From: a virus
Taxonomy: Duplodnaviria > Heunggongvirae > Uroviricota > Caudoviricetes
Virus record (IMG/VR): IMGVR_UViG_3300000571_000003
Span: 1-21,811 of that record
Length of the DNA stretch: 21,811 nt
Direction: 5' to 3' (one strand)
Positions 4,808-21,811 of this stretch are shown one piece after another. The position numbers and the translations under genes are program-made. The notes below the pieces were generated by a model. It saw only the letters and a list, made by a program, of their open reading frames with translations, had not been told where the DNA came from and searched no databases. Every line of letters begins with the position of its first letter. The stretch's first letter is position 1.

Positions 4808-6445
4808 TTATTTTAATATTTTTAAAAATTCAGAGTCTACATTATATGATGGATCGATCCTTCGCTTTATTAATACAACCTCTATATTACCGTTTTCGTG
4901 CCAGGTGTTGAATTTAATATTCCAGGGCAAAGGACGATAAATAGAATACAATCCATTCTTATACCACTTATCTATTGGATCAAAATATGACCACGTTTCT
5001 TCGTTAACGAAGTTGCAATTTCCAACCCACGCAACATGTCCATTATATCGTGTAAGAATTGTATGATTTTTTTCAACTTTTACACAAACAATTTTTCCAT
5101 CATACTGTTCTATAAATGGTTTTGGATAAAGCATTTTTTCACTCAATGGACAGACACTAACACGATATTGATCCTTTCTGACATACGACTTATCTCTTAC
5201 TGGAGAAAAAAATTCTTTTCCCTCTCTTAAATAAATATGTGACCTAAATCCACACTTTAACGCTATCTCATTTACATCAGATGCCAATCTTTCTGATATT
5301 GTAGTATATGTATATCCTCTTTCATTATTATGCCACTCTCCATCACCCATCCTCAAAGATTCAAGAAGGCGCTCAAGAAGCAATACGCTCATTCCCTTGT
5401 ATTCTACTGGAATATAACGAACATCTTGCTTTCCTAAATATGAGAGATGATCGAAAAGACTTTTTGAGTTTATTCTTATATAATTCTCATATTCCTTACT
5501 CTCAAAACCCATGCGTCCTACAAGAGAAGATATTTTGTTATAATTTTCAAGATTAGCCGCTTTACTTTGACAAATCTTCAAAAAACGACTCGATGAATCC
5601 TGACCATTTGGTGTTGTAAAGCATCCCTCTGATAATATCCATCCGAGAAGATCCATAAAATCTCCAGCATTGAAAGAAGTAGGACCGTTATCTCCTTCAG
5701 TTTTTTTAATTTCTACCGTATCAGGTTCGTCGCCAATCCATTTCGGAATTGTTGCTATCCCAACCCTTCCGAATGGAGTTTTTTCAAAGAACGAATCTGC
5801 ACGTCTCTTCTCCCATTTTGCTACATTTCCTCTCCATTTTGAAATCATGTCATGATTTGGTGTCACCGCGATATTCACTGCACGATTTTCAAACCTAACT
5901 ATTAGTCCTTCATAATCTTCATTTACAATACCTATACATTTTGAATATTCAGTTTCTTCAGTTTCAAGATTCATAGTAAGTACTTCTTCGCCAATTTTCA
6001 CATCCTGCATTTTTTTAAAACCATCTTTTGTTAAAACCTCAGCTCCATCTACTAGGCAATGCGTGGGATCCCTAAACATCCCCTGTGACGTTGCATATGG
6101 CGCTGCTATAAGGAATTCACCGTCTGGTTTCAAAATACGCCACACTTCATTCATAAATGCGATGAACACGCCGCCATGAGGGTTAATGTGCTCTACTACA
6201 TGTGATGCCATCACGAGTGATGCGCATTCATTGGGTAGTGGCCATGGGAACTTTTCAAGGTCATGCACGATATCTACACCGGGTTCTTTTCTATAATCCA
6301 TTCCAACAAAGCCTAGTTGCTTATTAGCCCCGCATCCAACATCGAGCCTAATCCCTTGCTGATTCTTTTTTAAAATTTCAATGATCATCGGATCTACATA
6401 TCTTTTACTTACACTCTCTTTTTTCTCTTTTATCTTTTTCTTCAT
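4808..6445 (-). CDS. Class I SAM-dependent methyltransferase (Methyltransf_11-like) containing an intein; mature protein ~198 aa
   Basis: RLDVGCGA motif I, SHVVEH, EVWRILKPDG and DPTH motifs; a 347-aa insert follows DPTH. Confidence 0.9.
   Translation of the reverse strand: MKKKIKEKKESVSKRYVDPMIIEILKKNQQGIRLDVGCGANKQLGFVGMDYRKEPGVDIVHDLEKFPWPLPNECASLVMASHVVEHINPHGGVFIAFMNEVWRILKPDGEFLIAAPYATSQGMFRDPTHCLVDGAEVLTKDGFKKMQDVKIGEEVLTMNLETEETEYSKCIGIVNEDYEGLIVRFENRAVNIAVTPNHDMISKWRGNVAKWEKRRADSFFEKTPFGRVGIATIPKWIGDEPDTVEIKKTEGDNGPTSFNAGDFMDLLGWILSEGCFTTPNGQDSSSRFLKICQSKAANLENYNKISSLVGRMGFESKEYENYIRINSKSLFDHLSYLGKQDVRYIPVEYKGMSVLLLERLLESLRMGDGEWHNNERGYTYTTISERLASDVNEIALKCGFRSHIYLREGKEFFSPVRDKSYVRKDQYRVSVCPLSEKMLYPKPFIEQYDGKIVCVKVEKNHTILTRYNGHVAWVGNCNFVNEETWSYFDPIDKWYKNGLYSIYRPLPWNIKFNTWHENGNIEVVLIKRRIDPSYNVDSEFLKILK
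5018..6058 (-). mobile_element. Intein (Hint domain plus LAGLIDADG endonuclease), 347 aa
   Basis: Starts CLVDGAEVLT (block A); VTPNHDM (block B TxxH); LLGWILSEG and LRMGDG endonuclease motifs; ends WVGN followed by +1 Cys (CNFVN). Confidence 0.92.
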
Positions 6446-6460
6446 AAATCTAAATAATAA

Positions 6461-7153
6461 TTAATATTTTATATTGTTTTCTTCTAAAAGTTTTTTGAGA
6501 TTGGCATTTTCTATTTTAATATCATCTACTAACTTCACGGCATCAAAGTGAGCCTTTGTATGTGCCTTACGAGATGGTAGAAGTTCAAGATTTTCTAACC
6601 TGTTGTCATCTGATATTCCATTTAAATGATGGACAACCTCTTCTGGATTTAAATGTCTTCCTATACTCTTTTCAACCACCAGTCTATGCTCCATCACATA
6701 TCCTTCTTGAGTAGAAAATGGATGTTCTGGAGAATATATTGAAATATACCTTCCCTTAACACCAGCTCTTCGTATTCCACCTTTCCAGTTTGCAGCGTCA
6801 GAACCCATTCTTTTCTTTGTATACCTATTCATCATGGCCTGCTTTATCCCTCTAGTACTAATTCCGGAATACATTACAGCAGAACGAACATTTCCTACTG
6901 TTGAACATATTTCTTTAGCTATTTGTCTTAAGGATTTTTTCTGTACAACATATTGATCCTTTAACCACTCTTTGTCACGAAGGAATACATTTTCTGACAC
7001 CCTACCCTTAACGCTTAATCCGTGATATTTAAGTGCCCTTACTACCGTCTTCTGTGAGCAGTCGAGTAGTGTTCTAATGTCCTCGACACTTCTATCCGTA
7101 TTGACATAATTTTCTATAAGAAAATCTTTATCAACATCCTTATATGTTCTCAT
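6461..7153 (-). CDS. Free-standing HNH homing endonuclease (HNH_3-like) with N-terminal helix-turn-helix-like repeats
   Basis: YVMEHRLVVE...EVVHHLNGISDDNRLENLELL motif. The likely start is ATG 7153; the track start at 7213 is the TTG of the promoter -35 box. Confidence 0.88.
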   Translation of the reverse strand: MRTYKDVDKDFLIENYVNTDRSVEDIRTLLDCSQKTVVRALKYHGLSVKGRVSENVFLRDKEWLKDQYVVQKKSLRQIAKEICSTVGNVRSAVMYSGISTRGIKQAMMNRYTKKRMGSDAANWKGGIRRAGVKGRYISIYSPEHPFSTQEGYVMEHRLVVEKSIGRHLNPEEVVHHLNGISDDNRLENLELLPSRKAHTKAHFDAVKLVDDIKIENANLKKLLEENNIKY

Positions 7154-7184
7154 ACTATTTTGTCTTTTATGACTTAATAATACA

Positions 7185-7213
7185 AGTATAGCAGAATTAA
7201 ATAGAAGTGTCAA
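7185..7213 (-). promoter_or_regulatory. sigma70-type promoter for the HNH gene
   Basis: TTGACA-17 nt-TATACT with extended -10 TG, ending 31 nt before the ATG at 7153. Confidence 0.75.
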
Positions 7214-7234
7214 GTAATTATACGTTGCTACTGA

Positions 7235-7717
7235 TCAGAACCTAATCTGATATGTGGCATTAACATTCTGATTAGTGGCACATGAACTTGATGCATACGT
7301 ATTTCCAGCGAACAATGTTCCTGTAGCAGCAGTCGAAGTATTGAACAGACCAATGTTCGAAATATTTCGAGTTGCGGTTACAAATGAGTTTGCACTTGCA
7401 AACTGTCCAGTGAACTGAGCAGTCTTTGATGCAACAACAGAAGTTGAAACTGCCTGTCGTCCAGCAGCTTCTGCAAGTTCTCCAGCAAGCGTTGTATCAG
7501 ATGCCGCAGGAGCACCACCAGTACCAAGAGCCAAATGAGTCACTGCCTTTGTTCCAGCAGCACCACAAAGGTTATTGATAAGGTATTGGGTAATACCATC
7601 GTTGGTGACTTGGTTCTCCTGCCATCCAGAATCCCCAACAACACCCTTTCCATTCTCAGTGATCTGCACGCGAAAGAATCCACGTGGATTCGCGCTGTCC
7701 TTTATAGATTTTCTCAT
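7235..7717 (-). CDS. Virion tail/baseplate (tail-collar-like) protein, 160 aa
   Basis: VTNDG...LALGTG...SDTTLAGE...R...ISNIGLFN pattern resembles tail-fibre N-terminal attachment domains; G/A/T-rich. Confidence 0.6.
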   Translation of the reverse strand: MRKSIKDSANPRGFFRVQITENGKGVVGDSGWQENQVTNDGITQYLINNLCGAAGTKAVTHLALGTGGAPAASDTTLAGELAEAAGRQAVSTSVVASKTAQFTGQFASANSFVTATRNISNIGLFNTSTAATGTLFAGNTYASSSCATNQNVNATYQIRF

Positions 7718-8059: not shown

Positions 8060-8296
8060 TTACTTAAGAATAAGCTTCATCATTATTCCAACAAATATAG
8101 TTATAATGACGCTACCGATAAAAACATTCCTCAACCACTCAAATTCTTGTTTTCCAGCATATTTTCTATCAGCAGATTCAATGAACGTATCGAGTTTTGT
8201 TCCAAGTTTAACCTGTCCAGTATGGATATCCTCGATTTTATCCTTCATATATTCTATATCTTTGCCATATTCGGCTATTTTTATCTCTGTCTCCAT
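8060..8296 (-). CDS. Small coiled-coil protein with C-terminal TM helix (holin/XhlA-like), 78 aa
   Basis: Heptad-like N-terminus, then VFIGSVIITIFVGIMM hydrophobic segment. Confidence 0.6.
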   Translation of the reverse strand: METEIKIAEYGKDIEYMKDKIEDIHTGQVKLGTKLDTFIESADRKYAGKQEFEWLRNVFIGSVIITIFVGIMMKLILK

Positions 8297-9475: not shown

Positions 9476-10348
9476 TTAGAGTAACATTGTTACACTTTCT
9501 GTAATAGTAAACTGATCATTTACACTCATTGAAGGATCTCGATTTACTGTTACACTCTCTGTAAGTGTAATTACATCATTTACATTAGCTATAAAGTGAA
9601 TAAATGGTGTCACACTCTCAGTAATTGTACTAGTATCATTTACACTAATATTAGAAGCAGAGACGGCCCCTGTTACTAATTCAGTAATCGTAAATTGATC
9701 GTTTACGGTCATTGTAAGGAAATCAAGTGGAGTTATACTATCAGTTACCGTTAACTGATCATTCACACTGATACTAGGTATTATGAATGTACTTGCAGAT
9801 GTTGTTCCATTGAATAAATATCCCTGCATGTCTTTTGCCTGCACATAAGATACCTCTAAACTGTCAGAAACAGAGTTAAGAAAATAAATACTCATCGCAT
9901 GTTTTACAACAGCAGAACTATTTAAAAATGAATAACGTGCTCCATTTATTTTAAATGTAGCACTAAATCCATTCCAAATAACCTCATATCTTACCGTTGT
10001 ATTTGTCCAAGAAGAATCCCATGTTATAGTTTCTGTCTCAGTATTTCCATCTCCATCTATTGTCTCTGCCTGAAATACAGTCCCATTTATACGAAAGCCT
10101 ACATATGCGCCAAGCGCTTTTTGCGCAAATCCAAACCTTCGAGAATGTCCTGCAGTAGGTGCAACAGGAATAGTAAGATTCATTACTAACCTTCCTTTAT
10201 AAATATCACCGTAGTGGATACATTCAGCAGAATTGACACGAATACCATTTCCAGTAGCAGTTACAACACCAGATAATGTTCTCCATTGAGTTGTATCGTA
10301 CCCCTGACGTTGTGCGTCATAATAAAAGTTTATTCTATCATTTGACAT
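9476..10348 (-). CDS. Virion protein: beta-sandwich/lectin-like domain plus C-terminal VNDQ(F/L)TITES repeats
   Basis: RYEVIWNGFSATFKING-type strands typical of ConA-like folds (inference); about five repeats at the C-terminus. Confidence 0.65.
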   Translation of the reverse strand: MSNDRINFYYDAQRQGYDTTQWRTLSGVVTATGNGIRVNSAECIHYGDIYKGRLVMNLTIPVAPTAGHSRRFGFAQKALGAYVGFRINGTVFQAETIDGDGNTETETITWDSSWTNTTVRYEVIWNGFSATFKINGARYSFLNSSAVVKHAMSIYFLNSVSDSLEVSYVQAKDMQGYLFNGTTSASTFIIPSISVNDQLTVTDSITPLDFLTMTVNDQFTITELVTGAVSASNISVNDTSTITESVTPFIHFIANVNDVITLTESVTVNRDPSMSVNDQFTITESVTMLL

Positions 10349-10415
10349 ATAAATTCTTAACCTTTAATAATCATGATTACCAACCAACAATATAATTATA
10401 CAATATATTAATATA

Positions 10416-11039
10416 TTATTCCACAGTTTTTTTCATAGGGGGTCTTCCACGACGAACCTTTTTCTCTCCATCTTGGTCAACATAAGCCTCATTTGCCTCT
10501 ATTGGTTCTGGTTGTACACCCAAAACCTTATTTACATCAATATTTTCACTATTTTCGTTACTTACATCATTTTTTTCTTCTACAGAATCCTCAACTTGTT
10601 GTTTGTTCTTCTCTTCATGAACCTTAGTTATCCCCTTAAGAACTGATTCTATAACACCTGGAAGCATCTCTTTTACCCTTGCAGAGGCTAAATCATCTAT
10701 TAATTTGTTCATTTGAGGCGTTAATTGAACATTTTTTGCTGATGATTTCATGTTTTCAACATGTCCATATTTTATCTCTTGAATTATATGTCCAGGTTCA
10801 GTTTCCTGTCTATTATAAGCATATGGATCTTTTTGAACTTCCTCAACACATATAAAGTCTCTATCAAATGCTGGATGATTAATCATCATATCAATCTGTT
10901 CCTGTTGATTTATTATAGCAATACCATCCTGAAACTTTACATAAATACCGCTAACCGGTTCACGACCTACTATTGCAGATCCTGGAATACCTGGTCTTAA
11001 AACTACACGTAAATTACTTGATTTTGAAACAAACTTCAT
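10416..11039 (-). CDS. Hypothetical phage protein with acidic tail and terminal RRGRPP (AT-hook-like) motif
   Basis: ORF track; position downstream of the capsid genes. Confidence 0.75.
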   Translation of the reverse strand: MKFVSKSSNLRVVLRPGIPGSAIVGREPVSGIYVKFQDGIAIINQQEQIDMMINHPAFDRDFICVEEVQKDPYAYNRQETEPGHIIQEIKYGHVENMKSSAKNVQLTPQMNKLIDDLASARVKEMLPGVIESVLKGITKVHEEKNKQQVEDSVEEKNDVSNENSENIDVNKVLGVQPEPIEANEAYVDQDGEKKVRRGRPPMKKTVE

Positions 11040-11828: not shown

Positions 11829-12430
11829 AAACCGGCAATAACCCGTGCCATTTCGGGGGTAGGAATAAAACCCTACCGGAGAGAGAAGGAGCTAGATCTC
11901 TATATTTAAGATAAATTCAAATTCTTAAATATTCTTGATATTATTTTGGTAAATTCTTCATATCCGTGAGCACTTTTCATCTTATTACACGTAGAGCAGC
12001 ACGGCAAAACATTACCTACCTCATAACCGATAGAACTATCTATTCTGTCAACACCCATTGTGGGTGAATTTATTCCACAGTAGTGACATTTACTAGAAAC
12101 CAACACAGATAAGGTGTCTACAGATATACTAAATGCCAATTTTCTTAATCTAGCATTCTTTGTATAAACATAATATCTACCCCTCACTGTCTCCCTTCTG
12201 TATCTGTTAACCCTTATTTTTTGACAGTCTTTACAAATACTTTTCCTAGAGTTTTTACTGTGACTTTTATTTAATGGAAAGAATTCACGTTCTTTATATT
12301 CGTCACATACCCGACAATGCAATCTTTCCTTTAACTTTTTTTCCATAATACAGAGATCTAGCTCCTTCTTTTTGTGATTTATTGTCCCACCCCTCCGTAG
12401 GACATTCCTAGCTCAACGAGAGACTAGGAA
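11829..12430 (-). ncRNA. Unassigned structured RNA between the MCP and the next gene, with an HNH ORF in one stem-loop
   Basis: Hairpins at 12405-12430, 12383-12404, 11858-11877 and 11829-11857, plus an 18-bp perfect inverted repeat at 12352-12369/11884-11901. Manual pairing only. Confidence 0.5.
11906..12346 (-). CDS. Zn-binding HNH-type (His-Me finger) endonuclease, 146 aa
   Basis: CxxC...CxxC N-terminus; CHYCG...GVDRIDSSIGY...NVLPCCSTCNKMK. Confidence 0.8.
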   Translation of the reverse strand: MEKKLKERLHCRVCDEYKEREFFPLNKSHSKNSRKSICKDCQKIRVNRYRRETVRGRYYVYTKNARLRKLAFSISVDTLSVLVSSKCHYCGINSPTMGVDRIDSSIGYEVGNVLPCCSTCNKMKSAHGYEEFTKIISRIFKNLNLS

Positions 12431-12444
12431 AAACAAGCTGTATT

Positions 12445-12993
12445 CTACGACGTGACCCCTTTTAAAAGGGCATGTTTAGCGCTCTGCGCTCTCTGCAAAC
12501 CTACTTCACTAAGATATTGATCAACAATACCGTCTGCGTCTGGCGCTTGGATGTTGGTCTGAAGTTGCGTATCGCGATTATTCATATAGCGATAGGCAAA
12601 ACATTCCATATCAAGCATAAACGCATAACCGGCATAATCTTCGACAAACAATGGATTATGAACAATGTTCACTGTTCCAAATGCTGTCTGCCATTGGCTG
12701 ATCTTCATACCGTATGTGGTGTCCAATGGTTTTGTGAGAATCTGTCCACGGGCGATTTCATTGATTGCCTGCAAGACGACACCGCCTGCAAAAAGCATCT
12801 TTGTATCATTACCGTAGGTAAATCCTTCACGTAGGAACGTGTTCAAATCAGGAGCAGTCAATGGACCGCCTTGGTTCTGAACATACGAGTTACCACCCTC
12901 GATGAACTCTAGCATACCGCCAGTGGAACGTCGTGGATGGCTCTGTGTTCCTGTGTCTGAATTTTTTTCACTGAACCAGAATGCACGTTCAAT
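12445..12993 (-). CDS. MCP exon 6 (IERAFWF... to stop)
   Basis: The track ORF starts at TTG 12996, whose G is the intron-terminal G; there is no independent start. Confidence 0.88.
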   Translation of the reverse strand: MERAFWFSEKNSDTGTQSHPRRSTGGMLEFIEGGNSYVQNQGGPLTAPDLNTFLREGFTYGNDTKMLFAGGVVLQAINEIARGQILTKPLDTTYGMKISQWQTAFGTVNIVHNPLFVEDYAGYAFMLDMECFAYRYMNNRDTQLQTNIQAPDADGIVDQYLSEVGLQRAQSAKHALLKGVTS

Positions 12994-15900
12994 CAATTTT
13001 GTTATTACCCATTAAGGGTAGGTTGATCATTTCTGTCAACCTCTCTATGTCGCCATAGAGTTCAGACTATATCATTATCCATTTTAATGAACTTCCCTCC
13101 AACCCTATCTCTGCTATTCGCAAAAATAGACATCTTCTGTTTTGTTTCATCTGTTATGGATATACCTCGTTTAGTCGTTGAACCTGGAAATAAAACCTTA
13201 TATTCTTCAAGTCTATTTTGCTTTCTTCCTATATTGAAGTATAGACCGTTTTCTATAAAGCTTTTCTTATTAAACGTAAATTTAGCGAAAATCTTACCTG
13301 ACTTTAATATCTCTCTAGTGATTACTCCAACCCTTATACCATTATTTTGGCAGAAAGAATGAAGTTCATATACCCACAAATCACAAGCTCCTATACCTAT
13401 CTTTAGATCACATACTTTATGACCATTATAGATATGTTCTCTTGTTTTAGATACATACCCTTCACTGTCGAGTAATCCAGATATTAATTCTCTTTGTAGA
13501 ACTTTATCCCACTCAGAGAAGTCTATTGGAAGATTCTTTCTATTATGAGTGATTTCTTGAAGTATATTGCAAAACTTCACGTCACTCAATCTTGTAGAGA
13601 ACACCTTCTTATTAGCCTTAGTAAGTCTATTCTCCTCACCAATACTAACATTATTCTCACTTAACTTTTCAAGATTACTAACTGTCTTCTTTACAAAATC
13701 ATGGTCTATCGCTTGTAACATAAATGTTCTTTTGTCAGAACATATCGACCCGTCTCCTAAAAAGACTCCTAATATATACGCTAAATTTTTGTTCATATTT
13801 CCTTGGCTGCGGATTGTCCCCACTAATTCATTGTTGCTCTTTGGCAGAATTAGATACTTGGGAGTTTCCCGCAATTAAGAGTTATTTAATTATGATGTTA
13901 CCACCATAATGGACACTATTCTATCCAAAGCGTGTTCTGTTCCCTTCTTTGCTCTCTGGTAAGGAAGCATTATTGTTACATTCCATTAAAGGAATGGCAT
14001 AGTCATTTCTGCTATGCTCTACGTGTCTCCATCGTAGATCGGACTATATCATCTCCCATAGGGAGTTTAGCGTATAGTCTCTGGGGATTTAAGCACGCTT
14101 TAACAGTTTTAATTGTTCATATATCTCATGATCCCTTTCTATATAAGGGACATTTTTATATACTGCCGATCTTCTATTAAGAAACTCTTTTACAAGAGCT
14201 ACTTGTTCTTTTTTCGTTACAGTATATTCACTAATGAGATCAATGAACTTCTTTATTCGTTCAAATCCATTTACTTCCACTACCCAACTTTCTCTCCACC
14301 CTTTTTTTGATGGACGATATTTTATGTAGTGAGTAACATTGAACGATTTTAACTGTTCTGATAGATAATCTATGGTTTTTTTATCCGTGTTAGCGATAAC
14401 GACACTTGGTCTATAAGTATCTTTATAATGAGGCTGTCTTTTATCAGTCCTCTTCCAAAGACCTATATAACCTTCTCCATCAAAAAAACCTGCTATCCAT
14501 CCTATCGTACTTAGCTTTCCTGCATGATTGTCTCTATCCATAACATTATTACCTAAGAAGTAATTATGGCTTAACGAGATGTTCCAGCATATGGCTAAAT
14601 TTTACAAGGACCATTCTCTTAATCCTTTCCTCCGTAGAGGTTGGCTTCCTTCTCAGTATTACTCAAGGCAATAGTTGTCTTGAAAATCTGTTACAATCTT
14701 GACATCATTTTTAATGTCTGATAAGATTACCTTATCACTCATATTCTCATATGAGGAGCGACTATATCTTCACTAAACCTTAGTGTTCGACGTATAGTCT
14801 GTGAGAATTTAACTTAACTATATCTATGAATATCAACAAAACATGCAAATTGTGCTCTCAACCTTTTGAAACTAATTTTAACAATAAAATTTTTTGTTCT
14901 AATAAGTGTAAGGATGAATGCTGTAAGTTTTTTCCACGGCGGGTGTCAGATGAGAAAAAATGTATTATCTGTGATAATATATTTACTCCCAAAAGAGAGA
15001 GTACAAATCTATGCTCTAGAAAATGTATAGACATATCCTATAACAATAAACGTCCCAGAAAAACCGATAAGAGATATCATGAAACGTTAGCGATAAAGAA
15101 AAAATCATTAAATAAAGAACAATTAGAAATAATCTATGGTTCTATATTGGGTGATGGATTCTTATCACTACAAACAGACGGTTTCCACCGCTTATCTTTA
15201 TGTCATTCTGAGAAACAATTAGACTATTTAAAGTTCAAGATGTCTAAATTATCTATTATATTTAGACAGAAAGAACCTAATAGATTTGTAAATCCAGAAC
15301 ACCTATATAAAGATTACATCATGAAAGAGAAAGTTCAGTATCATGCTCATTCTATATCCCATCCTTCTTTAACTAATCTTTACGGAATGTGTTATAGAAA
15401 TAAGAGACAAATGATAGACAGAAGATTTTTAAATCTTATGTCTGAAACTTCTCTTCTTATTTGGTTTTTAGATGATGGATGTTTAGATAAAAGAAATAGA
15501 AATTCTATATTATGCACTAATTCTTTTTCTATTTCTGAAGTATCTGCTATAAAGAAGTGGCTTTGGCAAAGATTTAAACTTACTGCCAAAATCAGAACAT
15601 CTTCCGGATATCCAATCATCTCATTCTCTGTGGAAGAAACTCGTAACCTTGTTGATATTTTGAGGCAAAGCCCCATTTTCAATGAACTTCCTGATTGTAT
15701 GCTATATAAGCTTACAATCAGACCATATAATTAAGTTATCTTTTCTGCTGATTGACCCTATTCATAGAATTTTCAGGGTTCGCCGGTAGGTCGCCCCAGC
15801 CCGGTATCCTATCTATGACTTAACAGGTTATCCCAGCATATAGTCGAATTTTACTACACCCAGATTGGTTGTTTCAAAGTGTAGTTTGTTTGGGCAGATG

Positions 15901-18467
15901 ATCTTGTTGCGTTTACATTTCGTGCTCCAGCATTCTCTTCACTTACATTACCAACGATGAATAATCCATCGCCAGCTGCACCTGCTGCAGCAGCTGTTGC
16001 TCCATATGAGCGAGTAGCTGTAATAGATGTTGTACTTGCAATAGTCAGAACAACAAGATTTTCTCCTGTACGAGCATTCTTAATTACATCTCCAACTGTG
16101 AAGATATAAGCTGAACTTGAACCGGCACCAGTTACACTAATTGTATCAGTGCCTGCGGTATAAGTTGCACTTACGCGAGCATATCTACCACCATAGAAGT
16201 CTTCGAACCACTTAAATTCCGGATTTCCTGTAGCTCGTTTGAGCATTGAGGAACCCTTCCATCCTTTTCCATCGTATGTTTTACCTACGTTTGTAAGTAA
16301 TGTAACTAATGGATGCTTATTCTTGTGTTAACTGCATGTCGCCATGCAGATCAGACTATATCTTCACCCTTTTAAAAGGGGACTAGCGTGCAGTCGTTGA
16401 GGCTACCAAACATCTTCTTACCTTTCTATCTAACATAAAGAAGAGTCCTGCATTAAAGAAACTTATTGGTTTTACATTAAATCTACAGAATATTTTTCCA
16501 TTTTTTGTTATAAATTCTTCCATTTTTAATGGTATAACATTTAATGATATCAACATATTTCTAAATTCAATTATCCATGTAGATTTTATTCCTCCAATAC
16601 CAATTCTATACTGAAATAATCCTGGATATTTTTTTCTTTCAGTCTTACTTATCCATCCATCTCCATCCATTACACCAGCAATAAACCATTTTTTTATGTT
16701 TAATTCAGAATTTAATATCTGTATAGGAATCTTAAATTTATCTTCTGTTATTTTTTTAAAAAATTTTGCATATTCACCTATACCAAGTTTTATTACATAC
16801 CTATCACTCTTATTCCAACCTTTTCTTTCACATCTTTTTCTTAAATATGCTTTTGTAGTTGGTATAAATATTTTCCAATATTCTAATACTCTTTCAGCAA
16901 AATCCTTATCAATAACTTGAAGATTGAAATTACATTCTGTAATTGATGCATCTGTTAAATAAACACCAATTAAATAAGCAAGTTCTTTATGCTCTATTTG
17001 GTCTTGCCTGCTGATTGTCTCTAAAACAATATTTTTACACTTAGGTAATTGATCTTTCATATATACTTATTATAGCACATTCTTAACTACTTGTCAAGTA
17101 TATATACGAGAGTTTCCAGCATATAGCTAGTTTTCCTTATAATCTTAATGCTCTCCCATTATTACTAATAGGCGACCCAATAAGTCTAGGTTCAAGCAAG
17201 AAGATCTTATCTGTAGCATCGACGATTAATCGTCCCTCTGCATCAGATGTGGTAGTTGTTCGCCCTGCATTTGCTGCTGTTAATGTAATTGCCGCTCCCT
17301 GGTCATGGGTCGGCTCGGTGTAGTGATTGATATTTTCTAAGGAATAATTATTTCCTACCTACGCTCTCACGTAGGATTAGACTGGCTCATCATTGTTTTT
17401 TGAACAATGTTTCACGTACAGTCGTTGAGGTTGACACTGTTTTGGTTTTGTGTTATAATAGATATATAAAAATTAATATCTATTTTATGAACAAAACATG
17501 TAAATTCTGCAATAAATATTTTATAGCAGAGGGTAAAAATTCATGGAAAAAATTATTTTGTAATGTGATCTGCCAACAAGAATTTTGGTCTATTCAAAGA
17601 AACAAAACAGGTATAAAGAATAAACCATCTAGAGATCTTGCCAATCGATATAAGAGTAACATTCTTACTGACAAGCAAATACAAATATGCTTAGGAGGAA
17701 TGATGGGTGATTCATCTATTAATATTAGACCAAACGGAAGGTGTAGATTATTAATGAATCATTGTGAAGCTCAAAACAAATATTTAGATTGGAAGAAAGA
17801 TATATTATATCCTTTTATCATCCAAGCTAAGGCAAATATTTGTCTTAATAAAGATAGGGTAATCAATGGAGTAGAGATAAACTCTACGCCTTCCTACCAT
17901 TACGCAAGTATCCAACATCAATATTTTACAGATCTTTTTGGACTATTTTACACAACATACCTAGGAGAAAAAAGAAAGAGAGTAAATATGAACATATTAA
18001 ATATGTTACAGCCACTAGCTATTCTTATTTGGTTCCTAGATGATGGTTGCTACTATTCTCAACCAAAGCATTCATCACACACCATGTATCTATCGACATA
18101 TCGCTATACATTAGGAGAACATCAAACCATGAAAAAATGGTTCTGGCATAAATGGAGAATAGAAATGACTATTACTCCAACAAATCAGAATACTAAATTC
18201 ATATTACGTATGAATAAAGAAAATATGATTAAGTTTAATAACTTATTCTTATTCCAATTTAAGGATGATGTACCGGAATGTATGCATTACAAATTCCCGA
18301 ATTTTTAACAGTGCCTTACCTGCGGATTGTGATTATCCATGAAATTATTAGGGTTCGCTGCAAGATTACTCCATACAGTATCCTATCCATGGCCTAACAT
18401 CGGTTCCCCGCATATAGTGAAATTTTACATCCGCGCTACATTACGTTCACGGATAAACATTAGGCAT
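12445..18467 (-). CDS. Major capsid protein, 420 aa after splicing: join(18467-18449,17324-17188,16321-15878,14690-14622,13967-13923,12993-12445)
   Basis: Exons total 1263 nt and join in frame: MPNVYP-Y-YTEPTHDQG...KIFLLEP|NKHPLVTLL...NPEFKWFED...QTNYT|QIFKTTIALS...GGKD|LPYQRAKKGTEHALD|IERAFWF...SEVGLQ...HALLKGVTS. Position after portal/scaffold and these motifs resemble DUF5309/SU10-type MCPs (from recall, not searched). Confidence 0.85.
12994..13922 (-). mobile_element. Group I intron 5 of MCP (929 nt)
   Basis: P1 UGGAU/GUCCA with U.G; P4 UGCGG/CCGCA; P7 GACUA/UAGUC; P9 CUCUAUG-GCGA-CAUAGAG; ends AAAAUUG. Confidence 0.9.
13062..13796 (-). CDS. Intron-encoded two-motif LAGLIDADG endonuclease
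   Basis: LAYILGVFLGDGSI and LISGLLDSEGYV; the likely start is ATG 13796, since the track start lies in P4. Confidence 0.88.
   Translation of the reverse strand: MNKNLAYILGVFLGDGSICSDKRTFMLQAIDHDFVKKTVSNLEKLSENNVSIGEENRLTKANKKVFSTRLSDVKFCNILQEITHNRKNLPIDFSEWDKVLQRELISGLLDSEGYVSKTREHIYNGHKVCDLKIGIGACDLWVYELHSFCQNNGIRVGVITREILKSGKIFAKFTFNKKSFIENGLYFNIGRKQNRLEEYKVLFPGSTTKRGISITDETKQKMSIFANSRDRVGGKFIKMDNDIV
13923..13967 (-). CDS. MCP exon 5 (45 nt, LPYQRAKKGTEHALD)
   Basis: Bounded by the intron 4 terminal G and the intron 5 P1 U.G pair; preserves frame. Confidence 0.85.
13968..14621 (-). mobile_element. Group I intron 4 of MCP (654 nt)
   Basis: P1 AAGGAU/GUCCUU; P3 UUUAGC/GCUAAA; P7 GACUA/UAGUC; P8 CUCCC/GGGAG; P9-P9.2 hairpins; ends AAUAAUG. 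Confidence 0.9.
14089..14541 (-). CDS. Intron-encoded single-motif LAGLIDADG endonuclease (150 aa)
   Basis: WIAGFFDGEGYIG motif. Confidence 0.88.
   Translation of the reverse strand: MDRDNHAGKLSTIGWIAGFFDGEGYIGLWKRTDKRQPHYKDTYRPSVVIANTDKKTIDYLSEQLKSFNVTHYIKYRPSKKGWRESWVVEVNGFERIKKFIDLISEYTVTKKEQVALVKEFLNRRSAVYKNVPYIERDHEIYEQLKLLKRA
14622..14690 (-). CDS. MCP exon 4 (69 nt, QIFKTTIALSNTEKEANLYGGKD)
   Basis: In-frame 23 codons; the 5' boundary could be 14687 instead (see findings). Confidence 0.8.
14699..14727 (+). promoter_or_regulatory. Putative sigma70-type promoter for the antisense endonuclease of intron 3
   Basis: TTGACA (14699-14704)-17 nt-TAAGAT (14722-14727) with extended TG at 14719-14720. 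Confidence 0.55.
14826..15734 (+). CDS. Zn-finger plus LAGLIDADG_2-type endonuclease, antisense to intron 3
   Basis: Two CxxC...CSxxC modules; IIYGSILGDGFL and LIWFLDDG motifs. Confidence 0.88.
   Translation: MNINKTCKLCSQPFETNFNNKIFCSNKCKDECCKFFPRRVSDEKKCIICDNIFTPKRESTNLCSRKCIDISYNNKRPRKTDKRYHETLAIKKKSLNKEQLEIIYGSILGDGFLSLQTDGFHRLSLCHSEKQLDYLKFKMSKLSIIFRQKEPNRFVNPEHLYKDYIMKEKVQYHAHSISHPSLTNLYGMCYRNKRQMIDRRFLNLMSETSLLIWFLDDGCLDKRNRNSILCTNSFSISEVSAIKKWLWQRFKLTAKIRTSSGYPIISFSVEETRNLVDILRQSPIFNELPDCMLYKLTIRPYN
15878..16321 (-). CDS. MCP exon 3 (444 nt, NKHPLVTLL...QTNYT)
   Basis: Contains track ORF 15854..16246; extends upstream in frame to the intron 2 terminal G at 16322. Confidence 0.88.
16383..17060 (-). 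CDS. Intron-encoded two-motif LAGLIDADG endonuclease (225 aa)
   Basis: LAYLIGVYLTDASI and FIAGVMDGDGWIS motifs. Confidence 0.88.
   Translation of the reverse strand: MKDQLPKCKNIVLETISRQDQIEHKELAYLIGVYLTDASITECNFNLQVIDKDFAERVLEYWKIFIPTTKAYLRKRCERKGWNKSDRYVIKLGIGEYAKFFKKITEDKFKIPIQILNSELNIKKWFIAGVMDGDGWISKTERKKYPGLFQYRIGIGGIKSTWIIEFRNMLISLNVIPLKMEEFITKNGKIFCRFNVKPISFFNAGLFFMLDRKVRRCLVASTTAR
17069..17097 (-). promoter_or_regulatory. Consensus sigma70 promoter inside intron 2 (L5)
   Basis: TTGACA-17 nt-TATAAT with extended TG; the ATG follows 8 nt after the -10 box. Confidence 0.8.
17188..17324 (-). CDS. MCP exon 2 (137 nt, ..YTEPTHDQG...KIFLLEP)
   Basis: Open frame with no in-frame ATG after the upstream in-frame stop, so it needs splicing to exon 1; the 5' boundary is inferred from P10. 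Confidence 0.75.
17431..17459 (+). promoter_or_regulatory. Consensus sigma70 promoter for the antisense endonuclease of intron 1
   Basis: TTGACA (17431-17436)-17 nt-TATAAT (17454-17459) with extended TG. Confidence 0.82.
17487..18308 (+). CDS. Zn-finger plus LAGLIDADG_2-type endonuclease, antisense to intron 1 (273 aa)
   Basis: MNKTCKFC...CNVIC; CLGGMMGDSSI and LIWFLDDG motifs. ATG 17487 lies downstream of the promoter, whereas the track start at 17400 lies upstream of it. Confidence 0.88.
   Translation: MNKTCKFCNKYFIAEGKNSWKKLFCNVICQQEFWSIQRNKTGIKNKPSRDLANRYKSNILTDKQIQICLGGMMGDSSINIRPNGRCRLLMNHCEAQNKYLDWKKDILYPFIIQAKANICLNKDRVINGVEINSTPSYHYASIQHQYFTDLFGLFYTTYLGEKRKRVNMNILNMLQPLAILIWFLDDGCYYSQPKHSSHTMYLSTYRYTLGEHQTMKKWFWHKWRIEMTITPTNQNTKFILRMNKENMIKFNNLFLFQFKDDVPECMHYKFPNF
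18449..18467 (-). CDS. MCP exon 1 (19 nt, ATG CCT AAT GTT TAT CCG T)
   Basis: First ATG after the scaffold stop; ends at the U of the P1 U.G pair. Confidence 0.7.
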
Positions 18468-18523: not shown

Positions 18524-19279
18524 TCAGAAAATATTTGGATTGGTTCTACCAGCTATAAGCCGATCAACAACCTCTCCAGTATTAGGCACATAATAACTTC
18601 CAGACTGGCCACCACCTGGAGCCTGTCCTTTTTGATATTCAGCTGCATCTCTTTCTGCACGCTTCTTAGACTCAACTTCTGAAACCTCACCTTTAACCGC
18701 ATAATATGCGATCTTGATATCAGTCACATCATGTTCGTCTATCCAAGTATTTATCCTATCAGCATAATCTGCGAAATCAGGAGTATTTGCTATGAATTCA
18801 TTAACGCCAACCTCAAAATTCCTCATTTCCTCTGATTCTTTTAAATCTTTTCCAAGTTCACGTTTCACTTCGCCTACCTTTTCTTCAATAAGCTTCGTGA
18901 GTTCTTCAGCGCTTGCGGAAGAATAGGCCTTTTTGCCTAATTCTTTCTGTACGTTTTCATGGGCTTGAGTGACCACCTTTGCATCGCCTATGGTAACTTT
19001 GTCCTCTAATACGGCTTTCGCCAAATCAGTGTCAATTTTACCATCAACGATTGCCTGAACAAGTTCAGGACTTTTGTCTAATTTTTCAAGGAGTGGTGAA
19101 ATTCCCTCAAAGAAACTTCGAAATTCCCCTAATTCATTTCCCATTCCTCCCATTTTAGACTCTAACTCTTCATATAACGCTTTATAATCAGTTCCATCTC
19201 CAGATGGCTGCCCAGCTGAGGCTGGACCATTGTCAGGGCTACCCGGCATCCCACCGGACCCAAGGTTTGGATCAGTCAT
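18524..19279 (-). CDS. Capsid scaffolding protein (251 aa)
   Basis: Acidic, helical/coiled-coil, P/G-rich N-terminus; immediately upstream of the MCP. Confidence 0.75.
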   Translation of the reverse strand: MTDPNLGSGGMPGSPDNGPASAGQPSGDGTDYKALYEELESKMGGMGNELGEFRSFFEGISPLLEKLDKSPELVQAIVDGKIDTDLAKAVLEDKVTIGDAKVVTQAHENVQKELGKKAYSSASAEELTKLIEEKVGEVKRELGKDLKESEEMRNFEVGVNEFIANTPDFADYADRINTWIDEHDVTDIKIAYYAVKGEVSEVESKKRAERDAAEYQKGQAPGGGQSGSYYVPNTGEVVDRLIAGRTNPNIF

Positions 19280-20700: not shown

Positions 20701-21811
20701 TTATCGTTGAATATTAAACACTCTATTCATTAATGCACTCTCAGGATTTGAATTTTTCTTTATATTTATATTTGTATTAACCTTTCCACCCCTATTAAAT
20801 CCTCTAGGATTTGCACCCCTCTGATCTAATACACCCTTCACAGTAGGCGGTGGACCTCCCCTCAAAAGATTTATAGGCCTTGAAGCTATTCCGTATCCCG
20901 AAGGTTCTGCGCCACCTGCACCTCCCATAGCCTGTTGCTGTTGCTGTTGCTGTTGCTGCTCTGCCATAACCTTCTCTACCCCTTTTGGAGCGACCATCTG
21001 CACTATCTGTGCCATCATTTCAGGAGATATAGCTCCACCCATTTCAACTCCTTCTGGCAATGGAATACCTTGTGGTTGTGGTTGAGCCATCTCTGCTCCT
21101 TGACCTTGTTGTTGCAACATCATAGCCTGTTCTTCAGGAGACATTTGTTGTTCTTGACTTTGCTCCATCCCTGGTTGCATACCCTGTTCTGCATTTTCTG
21201 CAGCAGCTATTGAATCTATACTCCAGCTCCAATCATATAAAACCTTAGTTGTAAGTTTCTTTGGATCAATAAATGGAAGATTAATAAGAAGCTGGAACAA
21301 ATCCATATCCTGTTTCTTCTTAACATCATTCATACCAGTTATAGATGGTATAACTGTAGCTTTATAATCAAACTTACCTTCAAGGTCATCTTTTTCTATA
21401 AGCGGATATGTTGGCTGACCATTCTCACCAAGGATCCTAATATACATTGGCTCTGTAAAGAATTGTCTCTCCATATCCATCCAATACCTCAAAACATCAC
21501 TAAATGCAGATCCTAAATGATTAATAAACAATCTGACACGTTCTAATGTTGATTCTCTAAGATGACGTACTTCAGTTGCACTGGCTCCTGCATTCCCAGT
21601 TCCCATTGAGAAATCATCAACACCAGAAGAATATCTCATATCTGCCTTCAAAAGATCTTCTTCTTTATACGCACTAGCCTTAATATCACTGAATTGAACC
21701 TCTCTAACGCCATTAGGATCAACAGAATATATAATACCAAATGGTCTTGTTACAAGTTCATCCTTATTAACATTAGCAAGAGGATTAACAATCCACATCT
21801 TATGAATACTC
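20701..21811 (-). CDS. Portal (head-tail connector) protein, C-terminal part; 5' end outside the window
   Basis: The frame stays open to the right edge. YSSGVDDFSMG...SATEV...FINHLG...IRILG...DLEGKFDY pattern resembles P22/T7-like portals; gene order portal-scaffold-MCP. Confidence 0.8.
   Translation of the reverse strand, partial: SIHKMWIVNPLANVNKDELVTRPFGIIYSVDPNGVREVQFSDIKASAYKEEDLLKADMRYSSGVDDFSMGTGNAGASATEVRHLRESTLERVRLFINHLGSAFSDVLRYWMDMERQFFTEPMYIRILGENGQPTYPLIEKDDLEGKFDYKATVIPSITGMNDVKKKQDMDLFQLLINLPFIDPKKLTTKVLYDWSWSIDSIAAAENAEQGMQPGMEQSQEQQMSPEEQAMMLQQQGQGAEMAQPQPQGIPLPEGVEMGGAISPEMMAQIVQMVAPKGVEKVMAEQQQQQQQQQAMGGAGGAEPSGYGIASRPINLLRGGPPPTVKGVLDQRGANPRGFNRGGKVNTNINIKKNSNPESALMNRVFNIQR
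20932..20958 (-). repeat. (CAGCAA)n microsatellite encoding Q9 in the portal tail
   Basis: Read directly from the sequence. Confidence 0.9.

Follow-up and report, generated by a model that had tools for sequence, protein, structure and literature searches.

Five predicted group I introns, each with a LAGLIDADG gene, in the SU10-type capsid gene of an uncultured groundwater phage

A metagenomic phage whose major capsid gene is broken by group I intron-type insertions has been described before. According to the accessible text of Yutin et al. (2021, PMC7886860), the capsid ORF of a Zeta-group crAss-like phage (cMAG OLRF01000054) is split into five fragments, and three of the four spacers between them contain intron-type domains. 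Several group I introns in one gene are also known from phage Twort, whose orf142 carries three and provides a precedent for exon skipping between neighbouring introns (Landthaler and Shub 1999, PMC22036, as cited in PMC11878797). The DNA polymerase and terminase genes of Bastillevirinae likewise contain up to three introns per gene, which, with Twort, is the maximum among cultured phages in the literature that we searched (PMC11878797). Capsid genes with a single intron occur in mycobacteriophage LittleE and lactococcal phage Tuc2009, and splicing of these introns was demonstrated by RT-PCR and N-terminal protein sequencing (PMC3706429). The introns of T4 td, nrdD and nrdB are also single, reside in genes of nucleotide metabolism and encode GIY-YIG or HNH endonucleases in ORFs that are looped out of the ribozyme (PMC2988022). 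In Jug phages, in turn, the number of small group I introns averages 18.5 for each genome (PMC12880540).

Here, we describe a stretch of 21,811 nucleotides (the window) at the very start of a virus record in IMG/VR that is 86.5 kb long and comes from groundwater metagenomes. The record is a metagenome assembly with an estimated completeness of 87% and represents an uncultured tailed phage with a genome of about 100 kb. Its sole SU10-type capsid gene has, very probably, been invaded independently by five mobile group I introns, each of which combines a ribozyme with a LAGLIDADG gene. The phage differs from OLRF01000054, as far as the accessible account of the latter goes, in phage order, capsid family and habitat (groundwater instead of gut), and its five introns are mapped to the base, whereas those of OLRF01000054 were recognised by their protein domains, and the account consulted mentions neither splice sites nor ribozyme cores nor micro-exons (PMC7886860). 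Compared with cultured Twort, where the splicing of three introns was shown by experiment in the work cited, the window has five predicted introns, each with an endonuclease ORF. LittleE and Tuc2009 have one intron per gene instead of five; the intron of LittleE encodes an HNH endonuclease instead of a LAGLIDADG protein, and its endonuclease gene is transcribed in the opposite direction to the host gene (PMC3706429), as in introns 1 and 3 of the window. The looped-out position of the endonuclease ORF is shared with the T4 introns, and the endonuclease families are different (PMC2988022).

The genes of the window lie on the minus strand. Tail and other structural genes are found near the capsid gene, together with the following genes:

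20701-21798, portal gene
18524-19279, scaffold-like gene, which precedes capsid exon 1
11906-12346, free-standing HNH-like ORF

No second capsid gene was found in the 86.5-kb record. The capsid gene itself extends on the minus strand from 18467 to 12445 and consists of six exons (19, 137, 444, 69, 45 and 549 nt), which join to 1263 nt, or 420 amino acids and a stop codon. Its exons were mapped by tblastn of two intron-less homologues (L030, 7773-9041, 422 aa; L032, 7770-9041, 423 aa) onto the window. Both proteins gave five collinear pieces on the minus strand that abut exactly in the protein, and the 19-nt exon 1 was added to these:

Exon 1, 18449..18467, minus strand: 19 nt (ATG, five codons and 1 nt; MPNVYP/Y)
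Exon 2, 17188..17324, minus strand: 137 nt, 80-89% identity to the intron-less homologues in tblastn
Exon 3, 15878..16321, minus strand: 444 nt, 75-76% identity to the intron-less homologues in tblastn
Exon 4, 14622..14690, minus strand: micro-exon of 69 nt, QIFKTTIALSNTEKEANLYGGKD, 96-100% identity to the intron-less homologues
Exon 5, 13923..13967, minus strand: micro-exon of 45 nt, LPYQRAKKGTEHALD, 100% identity to both L030 and L032
Exon 6, 12445..12993, minus strand: 549 nt including the TAG stop codon, Pfam SU10_MCP at 1.9e-28, 80-83% identity to the homologues

The five introns measure 1124, 866, 1187, 654 and 929 nt and make up 4760 of the 6023 nt of the gene (79%). Intron 1 is in phase 1 and introns 2-5 are in phase 0. 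This map reproduces all figures of a first-pass annotation of the same DNA, from the exon sizes and intron phases to the 420-aa frame. The continuity of the spliced protein with intron-less relatives, which that annotation had proposed as a check, was borne out as well: in a comparison set of 56 related capsid loci from IMG/VR, about 40 are intron-less and align to residues 1-420 or 5-420 of the spliced product at 70-81% identity, so that homology runs across all five joins. The protein belongs to the HK97-fold family SU10_MCP (PF17236). Positions 9-292 of this profile are matched at about 1e-49 by intron-less homologues with 81% identity to the spliced product; the match covers their residues 30-421, which places four of the joins inside the conserved fold. 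A solved capsid protein, 9in6 of phage VP1, matches at 4.5e-24, and the nearest capsid proteins of cultured phages are 26-30% identical. An alternative start codon that could replace exon 1 was not found: upstream of exon 2, there is no in-frame ATG, GTG or TTG before an in-frame UAG closes the frame. First exons of similar size (13-19 nt) lie at the site of exon 1 in four related loci (L052, L053, L026 and L028).

The identity of the intervening sequences was assessed with a covariance model of the 3' core (P7-P8-P7'-P9), termed R1, which was built from 16 introns of other phages outside the window. In the R1 alignment, 98% of the cells are paired, seven pairs have changed on both sides, and the covariation observed in P7 and P9 is reached by none of 500 shuffles; the P7 pair that flanks the bulged base alternates between G-C, A-U and C-G. 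When run on the window with filters off, R1 gave exactly five minus-strand hits (E 1e-16 to 1e-9), one towards the 3' side of every intron, and no others on either strand above the next best match at 9.3 bits (E 0.65). On the whole 86.5-kb record, it found no cores beyond these five. The introns and their individual matches are:

Intron 1, 17325..18448, minus strand: 1124 nt, phase 1, last base C; R1 core at 17356-17432, 48.2 bits, E 1.9e-10
Intron 2, 16322..17187, minus strand: 866 nt, phase 0, last base G; R1 core at 16330-16404, 73.7 bits; Rfam 40.4 bits
Intron 3, 14691..15877, minus strand: 1187 nt, phase 0, last base A; R1 core at 14736-14808, 60.6 bits; Rfam 38.3 bits
Intron 4, 13968..14621, minus strand: 654 nt, phase 0, last base G; R1 core at 14017-14088, 68.4 bits
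Intron 5, 12994..13922, minus strand: 929 nt, phase 0, last base G (...AAAATTG/ATTGAA); R1 45.2 bits with a 73-nt P8 insertion; Rfam 27.9 bits in the 5' half (13678-13932), 37.4 bits in the 3' half (13043-13361)

The 5' domains of the ribozymes are recognisable, too. The P4'/P6 motif CAATC-N1-2-GCAG-NN-AAG occurs five times in the window, once per intron, with 0.00 occurrences expected, and the J3/4-P4 motif ATATGCKGGRA is present in introns 1-4, with AATTGCGGGAA as its counterpart in intron 5. A fifth match to ATATGCTGGAA, at 8152-8162, falls by chance within an unremarkable small ORF that shows no group I signal. In its 5' half, intron 1 can be aligned with the intron-3 family, with compensatory changes in one helix; its J8/7 is atypical (AUGAGCC instead of AGAUAUA). 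All five introns possess a P3-P6 domain, a P7-P9 core and a P1 that ends in a U.G pair. An intein is ruled out by an in-frame stop 0-16 codons past each 5' join.

The full-length Rfam model gives a different picture. At the gathering score of RF00028 (50 bits), nothing was found in the whole window, and permissive searches returned only sub-threshold partial matches, the introns scoring between 18.7 and 40.4 bits. Taken literally, these scores go against the first-pass annotation, which had counted cores below covariance-model thresholds as a refutation. ORF-less relatives from the same site or the same subfamily, in contrast, reach 61-88 bits in RF00028, and we attribute the shortfall to the ORF insertions of 450-910 nt in the window introns. 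The five cores stand on the R1 hits, the P4'/P6 motifs and the P1 helices, with the reservation that introns 1 and 3 also deviate in their last base. Judged by these sequence features, the five intervening sequences are group I introns, with introns 1 and 3 as atypical members.

Among ribozymes, introns 1 and 3 are most closely related to bacterial 23S rRNA introns (L068 and L073), whose J2/3-P3-P4 stretch and P4'/P6 are nearly identical to theirs. The 23S rRNA introns pass the Rfam threshold with 72 and 74.6 bits, lack an ORF and are about 250 nt long, whereas the P6 loop of introns 1 and 3 is enlarged by about 860-910 nt of inserted sequence that holds the antisense endonuclease gene. Alignment with these ORF-less introns places the insertion directly after the 5' strand of P6, so that introns 1 and 3 can be described as a compact 23S-type ribozyme plus insertion. 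In a megablast search of the 6-kb gene against GenBank phages, the only match was a stretch of 34 nt in P7'-P9 of intron 2, which is identical to DNA of the nrdD region of a T4-like coliphage. Intron 2 is also 72% identical to the intron at the same site in L025, and an ORF-less intron of 254 nt in L026, at the site of intron 4, scores 70.7 bits in Rfam.

The splice-site helices were examined intron by intron. A scripted check gave P1 helices of 7, 4, 8, 6 and 5 bp for introns 1-5, all with a U.G pair at the 5' splice site, and P10 comprises 5 (after one mismatch), 6, 6, 1 and 4 bp, so that it is essentially absent from intron 4. In intron 1, the last 7 nt of exon 1 pair with 18434-18428, and the 5' splice site coincides with an in-frame UGA; in intron 4, a UAA follows immediately past it. 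The P10 of intron 3 (CAGAUU/AAUCUG) directly abuts its P1. Both micro-exons pair with their two neighbours, through P10 of the upstream intron and P1 of the downstream intron. It had been suggested that adjacent introns share exon sequence for these pairings, and this does not hold for exons 4 and 5: the two helices use opposite ends and have no bases in common (exon 4, P10 on nt 1-6 and P1 on nt 64-69; exon 5, P10 of about 1 bp and P1 on nt 41-45). As introns 2-5 are all in phase 0, skipping of exon 3, 4 or 5 would preserve the reading frame. Such skipping, like an imposed order of splicing or a throttling of capsid output, is nevertheless speculation at this stage; a search for RNA runs listed none.

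Every intron contains an intact LAGLIDADG ORF, three of them on the strand of the gene (introns 2, 4 and 5) and two antisense to it (introns 1 and 3):

Intron 1 ORF, 17487..18308, plus strand (antisense): LAGLIDADG_2 in the P6 loop, Pfam PF03161 at 4.5e-26
Intron 2 ORF, 16383..17060, minus strand (sense): double-motif LAGLIDADG, Pfam LAGLIDADG_3 (PF14528) at 1.8e-5
Intron 3 ORF, 14826..15734, plus strand (antisense): LAGLIDADG_2 in the P6 loop, Pfam PF03161 at 3.2e-28
Intron 4 ORF, 14089..14541, minus strand (sense): single-motif LAGLIDADG, 150 aa, LAGLIDADG_3 (PF14528) at 1.4e-9 and LAGLIDADG_1 at 2.9e-6
Intron 5 ORF, 13062..13874, minus strand (sense): double-motif LAGLIDADG, LAGLIDADG_3 at 22.1 bits, just below the cutoff of 22.5

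The intron 1 ORF is listed with a TTG start at 17400; the ATG at 17487 is the likely start, and the alignment with its intron-3 paralogue begins at residue 30. The sense ORFs are interlaced with their ribozymes. In intron 2, the first codons overlap P4'/P6 (motif at 17003-17017) and the last codons overlap P7/P3'; in intron 4, the first codons overlap P4'/P6 (motif at 14515-14530); and the intron 5 ORF reads through P4'/P6 (motif at 13802-13816) and stops in P7'. The ORFs of introns 1 and 3 are only 26% identical, and those of introns 2 and 5 only 28% over 218 aa, which points to five old, independent invaders and not to recent duplications.

In phage T4, intron endonuclease genes have their own promoters, and in-frame stops keep ribosomes away from the ribozyme core. 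Similar provisions are predicted here. Promoter-like sites are not enriched overall (21 found, 30.9 expected), and we therefore report only strong, well-placed ones. A perfect predicted sigma-70-type promoter (12/12, with an extended -10 TG) is located at 17431-17459 on the plus strand, upstream of the intron 1 ORF, and another (TTGACA-17-TATAAT, 12/12, extended -10 TG) at 17097-17069 on the minus strand, 9 nt before the ATG of the intron 2 ORF; the latter is conserved in L025. A site matching at 10 of 12 positions precedes the antisense ORF of intron 3 (14699-14727, plus strand).

Intron-bearing and intron-less capsid alleles coexist among the relatives of this phage, with 0 to 6 introns per allele and at least 10 different insertion sites across the clade. 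L052 has six introns (five core hits, plus a compact one recognised by reading the sequence) and seven exons, including pieces of 19, ~48, ~30, ~48 and 19 nt; the allele of L054 contains four introns, and those of L053, L026 and L025 contain three apiece. The site of intron 3 is also occupied in L025/L082, L054/L069, L065 and L075. An allele free of intron 4 was found in the same sample, on a low-depth contig of a related phage that skips exactly 13968-14621. The view of the five-intron capsid gene as unprecedented can thus not be upheld, given the six introns of L052 and the published five-fragment capsid ORF of the crAss-like phage (PMC7886860). The gene in the window is an extreme, well-resolved case of an already known type and not the maximum of its clade. 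A clade-wide pile-up of introns in one capsid gene was, however, absent from the literature that could be searched.

A puzzling feature of the window introns concerns their 3' ends. Introns 2, 4 and 5 end in the canonical G, which is normally required for the second step of splicing, whereas the last base is C in intron 1 (17325) and A in intron 3 (14691). The only in-frame junctions at these two joins are those backed by homology (YPYYTEP at join 1, NYTQIFK at join 3), and P10 agrees with them. For intron 1, a G-ending 3' splice site was sought in vain, as splicing at any of the neighbouring Gs would create a UAA or UAG or shift the frame. The contigs of two sequencing runs, which may be those of the source sample, agree at both positions. 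Across the clade, 19 of 22 homology-defined junctions permit the canonical form, in which the exon ends in U and the intron in G, and the end can differ between phages that carry an intron at the same site. At the intron 1 site (6/7), the introns of L053 and L028 end in G and those of L052 and L026 in A, with the same P1 and a P10 to the same 3' exon start in all five phages, including the window. At the intron 3 site (200/201), L065, L082 and L054 end in G, and L075, the closest relative, ends in A. At site 52/53, the L025 intron ends in A and intron 2 of the window in G. A capsid-like gene in L064 keeps its frame only if the intron ends in A or if both splice sites move by one base, and the last base of the 23S rRNA intron L068 is ambiguous owing to a 4-nt repeat (AGCG) at the junction. 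In all same-site introns, including those without a terminal G, the guanosine-binding G-C pair of P7 is canonical and P10 remains strong, and no feature of the core or the G-binding region consistently tracks with the non-G end.

A precedent for such ends exists in the hexacoral mitochondrial ND5-717 intron, which lacks a terminal G and yet yields correctly ligated exons in vivo (PMC6545197). This intron is giant, obligatory and thought to depend on host factors (PMC6545197), while the window introns appear to be mobile phage elements, and the alternation of G, A and C among introns at one site also sets the phage case apart. Because the record holds no other capsid gene and the phage is abundant (about 50-68x depth), introns 1 and 3 probably do splice. 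We see an even chance that the capsid introns constitute a natural set of ribozymes that ligate exons accurately without a 3'-terminal guanosine. If they do, the 3' splice site would be chosen through P10 together with tail contacts, or with the aid of a protein, rather than through docking of the terminal G, and this protein could be a maturase in the form of the LAGLIDADG protein that the intron itself encodes. Non-G ends, if functional, would therefore be relevant to how the second step of splicing works.

Alternatively, introns 1 and/or 3, with C and A beside a canonical G-binding site, may be unable to ligate their exons. This would cripple the gene and leave a phage that is either defective or reliant on co-infection by relatives with intron-less or G-ending alleles; intron-less relatives are indeed present in the same sample. 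We nevertheless regard this as quite improbable, given that about 50-68x depth in two or three runs shows no variant at 17325 or 14691, that none of the exons and none of the five endonuclease ORFs is disrupted, and that ND5-717 splices without a terminal G. The recurrence of non-G ends in distinct phages at the same three sites furthermore suggests that they are tolerated rather than lethal. For intron 3, use of a G located 3 nt downstream, in a CAG codon, would yield a canonical intron and a protein of 419 aa that lacks Gln201. The shift is in frame, and the sequence ...ACAG/AU is retained wherever an intron at this site ends in A (the window and L075). P10, on the other hand, pairs CAG as exon, as it does in the G-ending introns of L065, L082 and L054, and this would lock the G of the codon in a helix instead of leaving it docked in the G-binding site. 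Gln201 is, moreover, present in the intron-less homologues examined, and intron 1 offers no similar rescue, which makes the shifted site an unlikely solution.

The five-intron layout could, in principle, also be an assembly chimera of strains with fewer introns that were joined via repeated cores. Logan contigs do break at the repeated intron cores 13048-13070 and 16333-16361, depth at these cores is 5-10 times that of their surroundings, and the contigs on either side are covered unequally (about 50 and 68). Both junctions of introns 1, 3 and 4 are, however, contained within single contigs. At both break points, intron sequence is attached to an exon on each side, so that an intron must be present there whichever contigs join, and independently assembled relatives carry three to six introns. 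A chimera is hence a highly improbable origin of the layout. Independent invasion of a single capsid gene by five mobile introns remains our preferred explanation. What speaks against it are the RF00028 scores, the missing terminal G of introns 1 and 3 and the incompleteness of the record, as well as the near absence of P10 in intron 4 and the short P1 of intron 2.

According to this explanation, the late capsid transcript of about 6 kb would fold into five ribozymes, each of which would cut after the U of the P1 U.G pair with the help of exogenous guanosine. Ligation of the exons, with P10 aligning the 3' exon, would produce the mature mRNA and the complete capsid protein, and the stops at the beginning of each intron would halt ribosomes on unspliced RNA. 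The endonuclease genes would be transcribed separately, from their own promoters, and their products may spread the introns into intron-less capsid alleles during co-infection. Such endonuclease-driven spread could account for the build-up of introns in a conserved essential gene across the clade.

Capsid genes of this type are of practical relevance, since they are missed or fragmented by gene callers and Rfam thresholds. The capsid protein is required in hundreds of copies per virion, and each copy would hinge on five ribozyme reactions on one transcript (six in L052), some of them by ribozymes that are separated by exons of merely 19-69 nt. The clade therefore offers a natural system in which to study how homing endonucleases accumulate in one conserved essential gene and how neighbouring ribozymes fold without interference. 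It is also suited to the question of whether multi-intron genes give rise to competitive exclusion among co-infecting phages, as shown for one intron endonuclease in PhiPA3 (PMC11620839).

Introns 1 and 3 of the capsid gene, which form one ribozyme subfamily, carry a C (17325) and an A (14691), respectively, in place of the 3'-terminal G. The same deviation, a C or A as the last intron base, recurs in four other phages, in introns at the same sites or in related ones (L052, at about 4658; L026, at about 6811; L025, at about 5696; and L075), and G is kept as the 3' end by other same-site relatives of these introns. Canonical P1, P10 and G-binding pair are retained in the introns that lack the terminal G. 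An intron of this 1/3 subfamily was also observed in a capsid-like gene of L064, an unrelated metagenome contig, with its motif at oriented position 2602. Its junction reads ...TLH^EWLEDY..., and the sole in-frame junction requires either an A ending or a shift of both splice sites by one base off the U.G pair.

The capsid gene of the related phage L052 (L052:3552-8990) is even more fragmented than that in the window: six group I introns separate seven exons, which include two of 19 nt and pieces of about 30-48 nt.

Directly 5' of intron endonuclease ORFs, we predicted sigma-70-type promoters with perfect or near-perfect matches to the consensus:

Predicted sigma-70-type promoters in the window
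17431-17459, + strand, intron 1 antisense ORF
17097-17069, - strand, intron 2 ORF
14699-14727, + strand, intron 3 antisense ORF

The -35 box of the intron 1 promoter falls within CAGUGUCAACCUC, a stretch just 5' of P7 that is conserved in the related loci L052 and L053. A gap of 9 nt separates the predicted intron 2 promoter from the ATG, so a transcript started there would be nearly leaderless.

The J3/4-P4 motif, ATATGCTGGAA, also has an exact match at 8152-8162 (-) within a small ordinary ORF (8060-8296). It was judged a chance match, because no group I signal was found around it.

Three further ORFs in the structural module were recorded, two of them free-standing HNH-type endonuclease ORFs:

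Other ORFs in the structural module
11906-12346, - strand, HNH-type, directly 3' of the capsid stop codon; sole profile match Pfam Stc1 (weak), HNH-like C-terminal motif by eye
6461-7213, - strand, HNH-type, PHROG HNH families (7e-26)
4808-6445, - strand, 545 aa; weak local match to a PHROG 'thymidylate synthase' family (residues 122-206, 3.7e-8), its only match and odd for this position

In the source metagenomes, contig depth rises to 234 over the 3' core segment of intron 5 (13012-13215) and to 528 over that of intron 2 (16276-16479), versus about 50, i.e. 5-10 times the local depth, and so this family of introns is highly abundant in the groundwater community concerned. Assemblies break at these segments.

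Other genes on phage contigs, related or unrelated, hold further group I introns that score above the Rfam threshold; at least four of them lie on L074, in 14 kb. Introns 1 and 3 have their closest ribozyme relatives in bacterial 23S rRNA genes, and these relatives carry no ORF.

Group I introns outside the window
L048:12317-12503, phage contig, other gene
L074:63-309, 6296-6624, 6824-7243 and 10234-10507, phage contig
L068:6913-7137 and L073:6727-6981, 23S rRNA genes, flanks ...CUAAGGU|AGCGAA...

This kinship suggests that phage capsid genes and the rRNA genes of bacteria have exchanged the intron 1/3 family.
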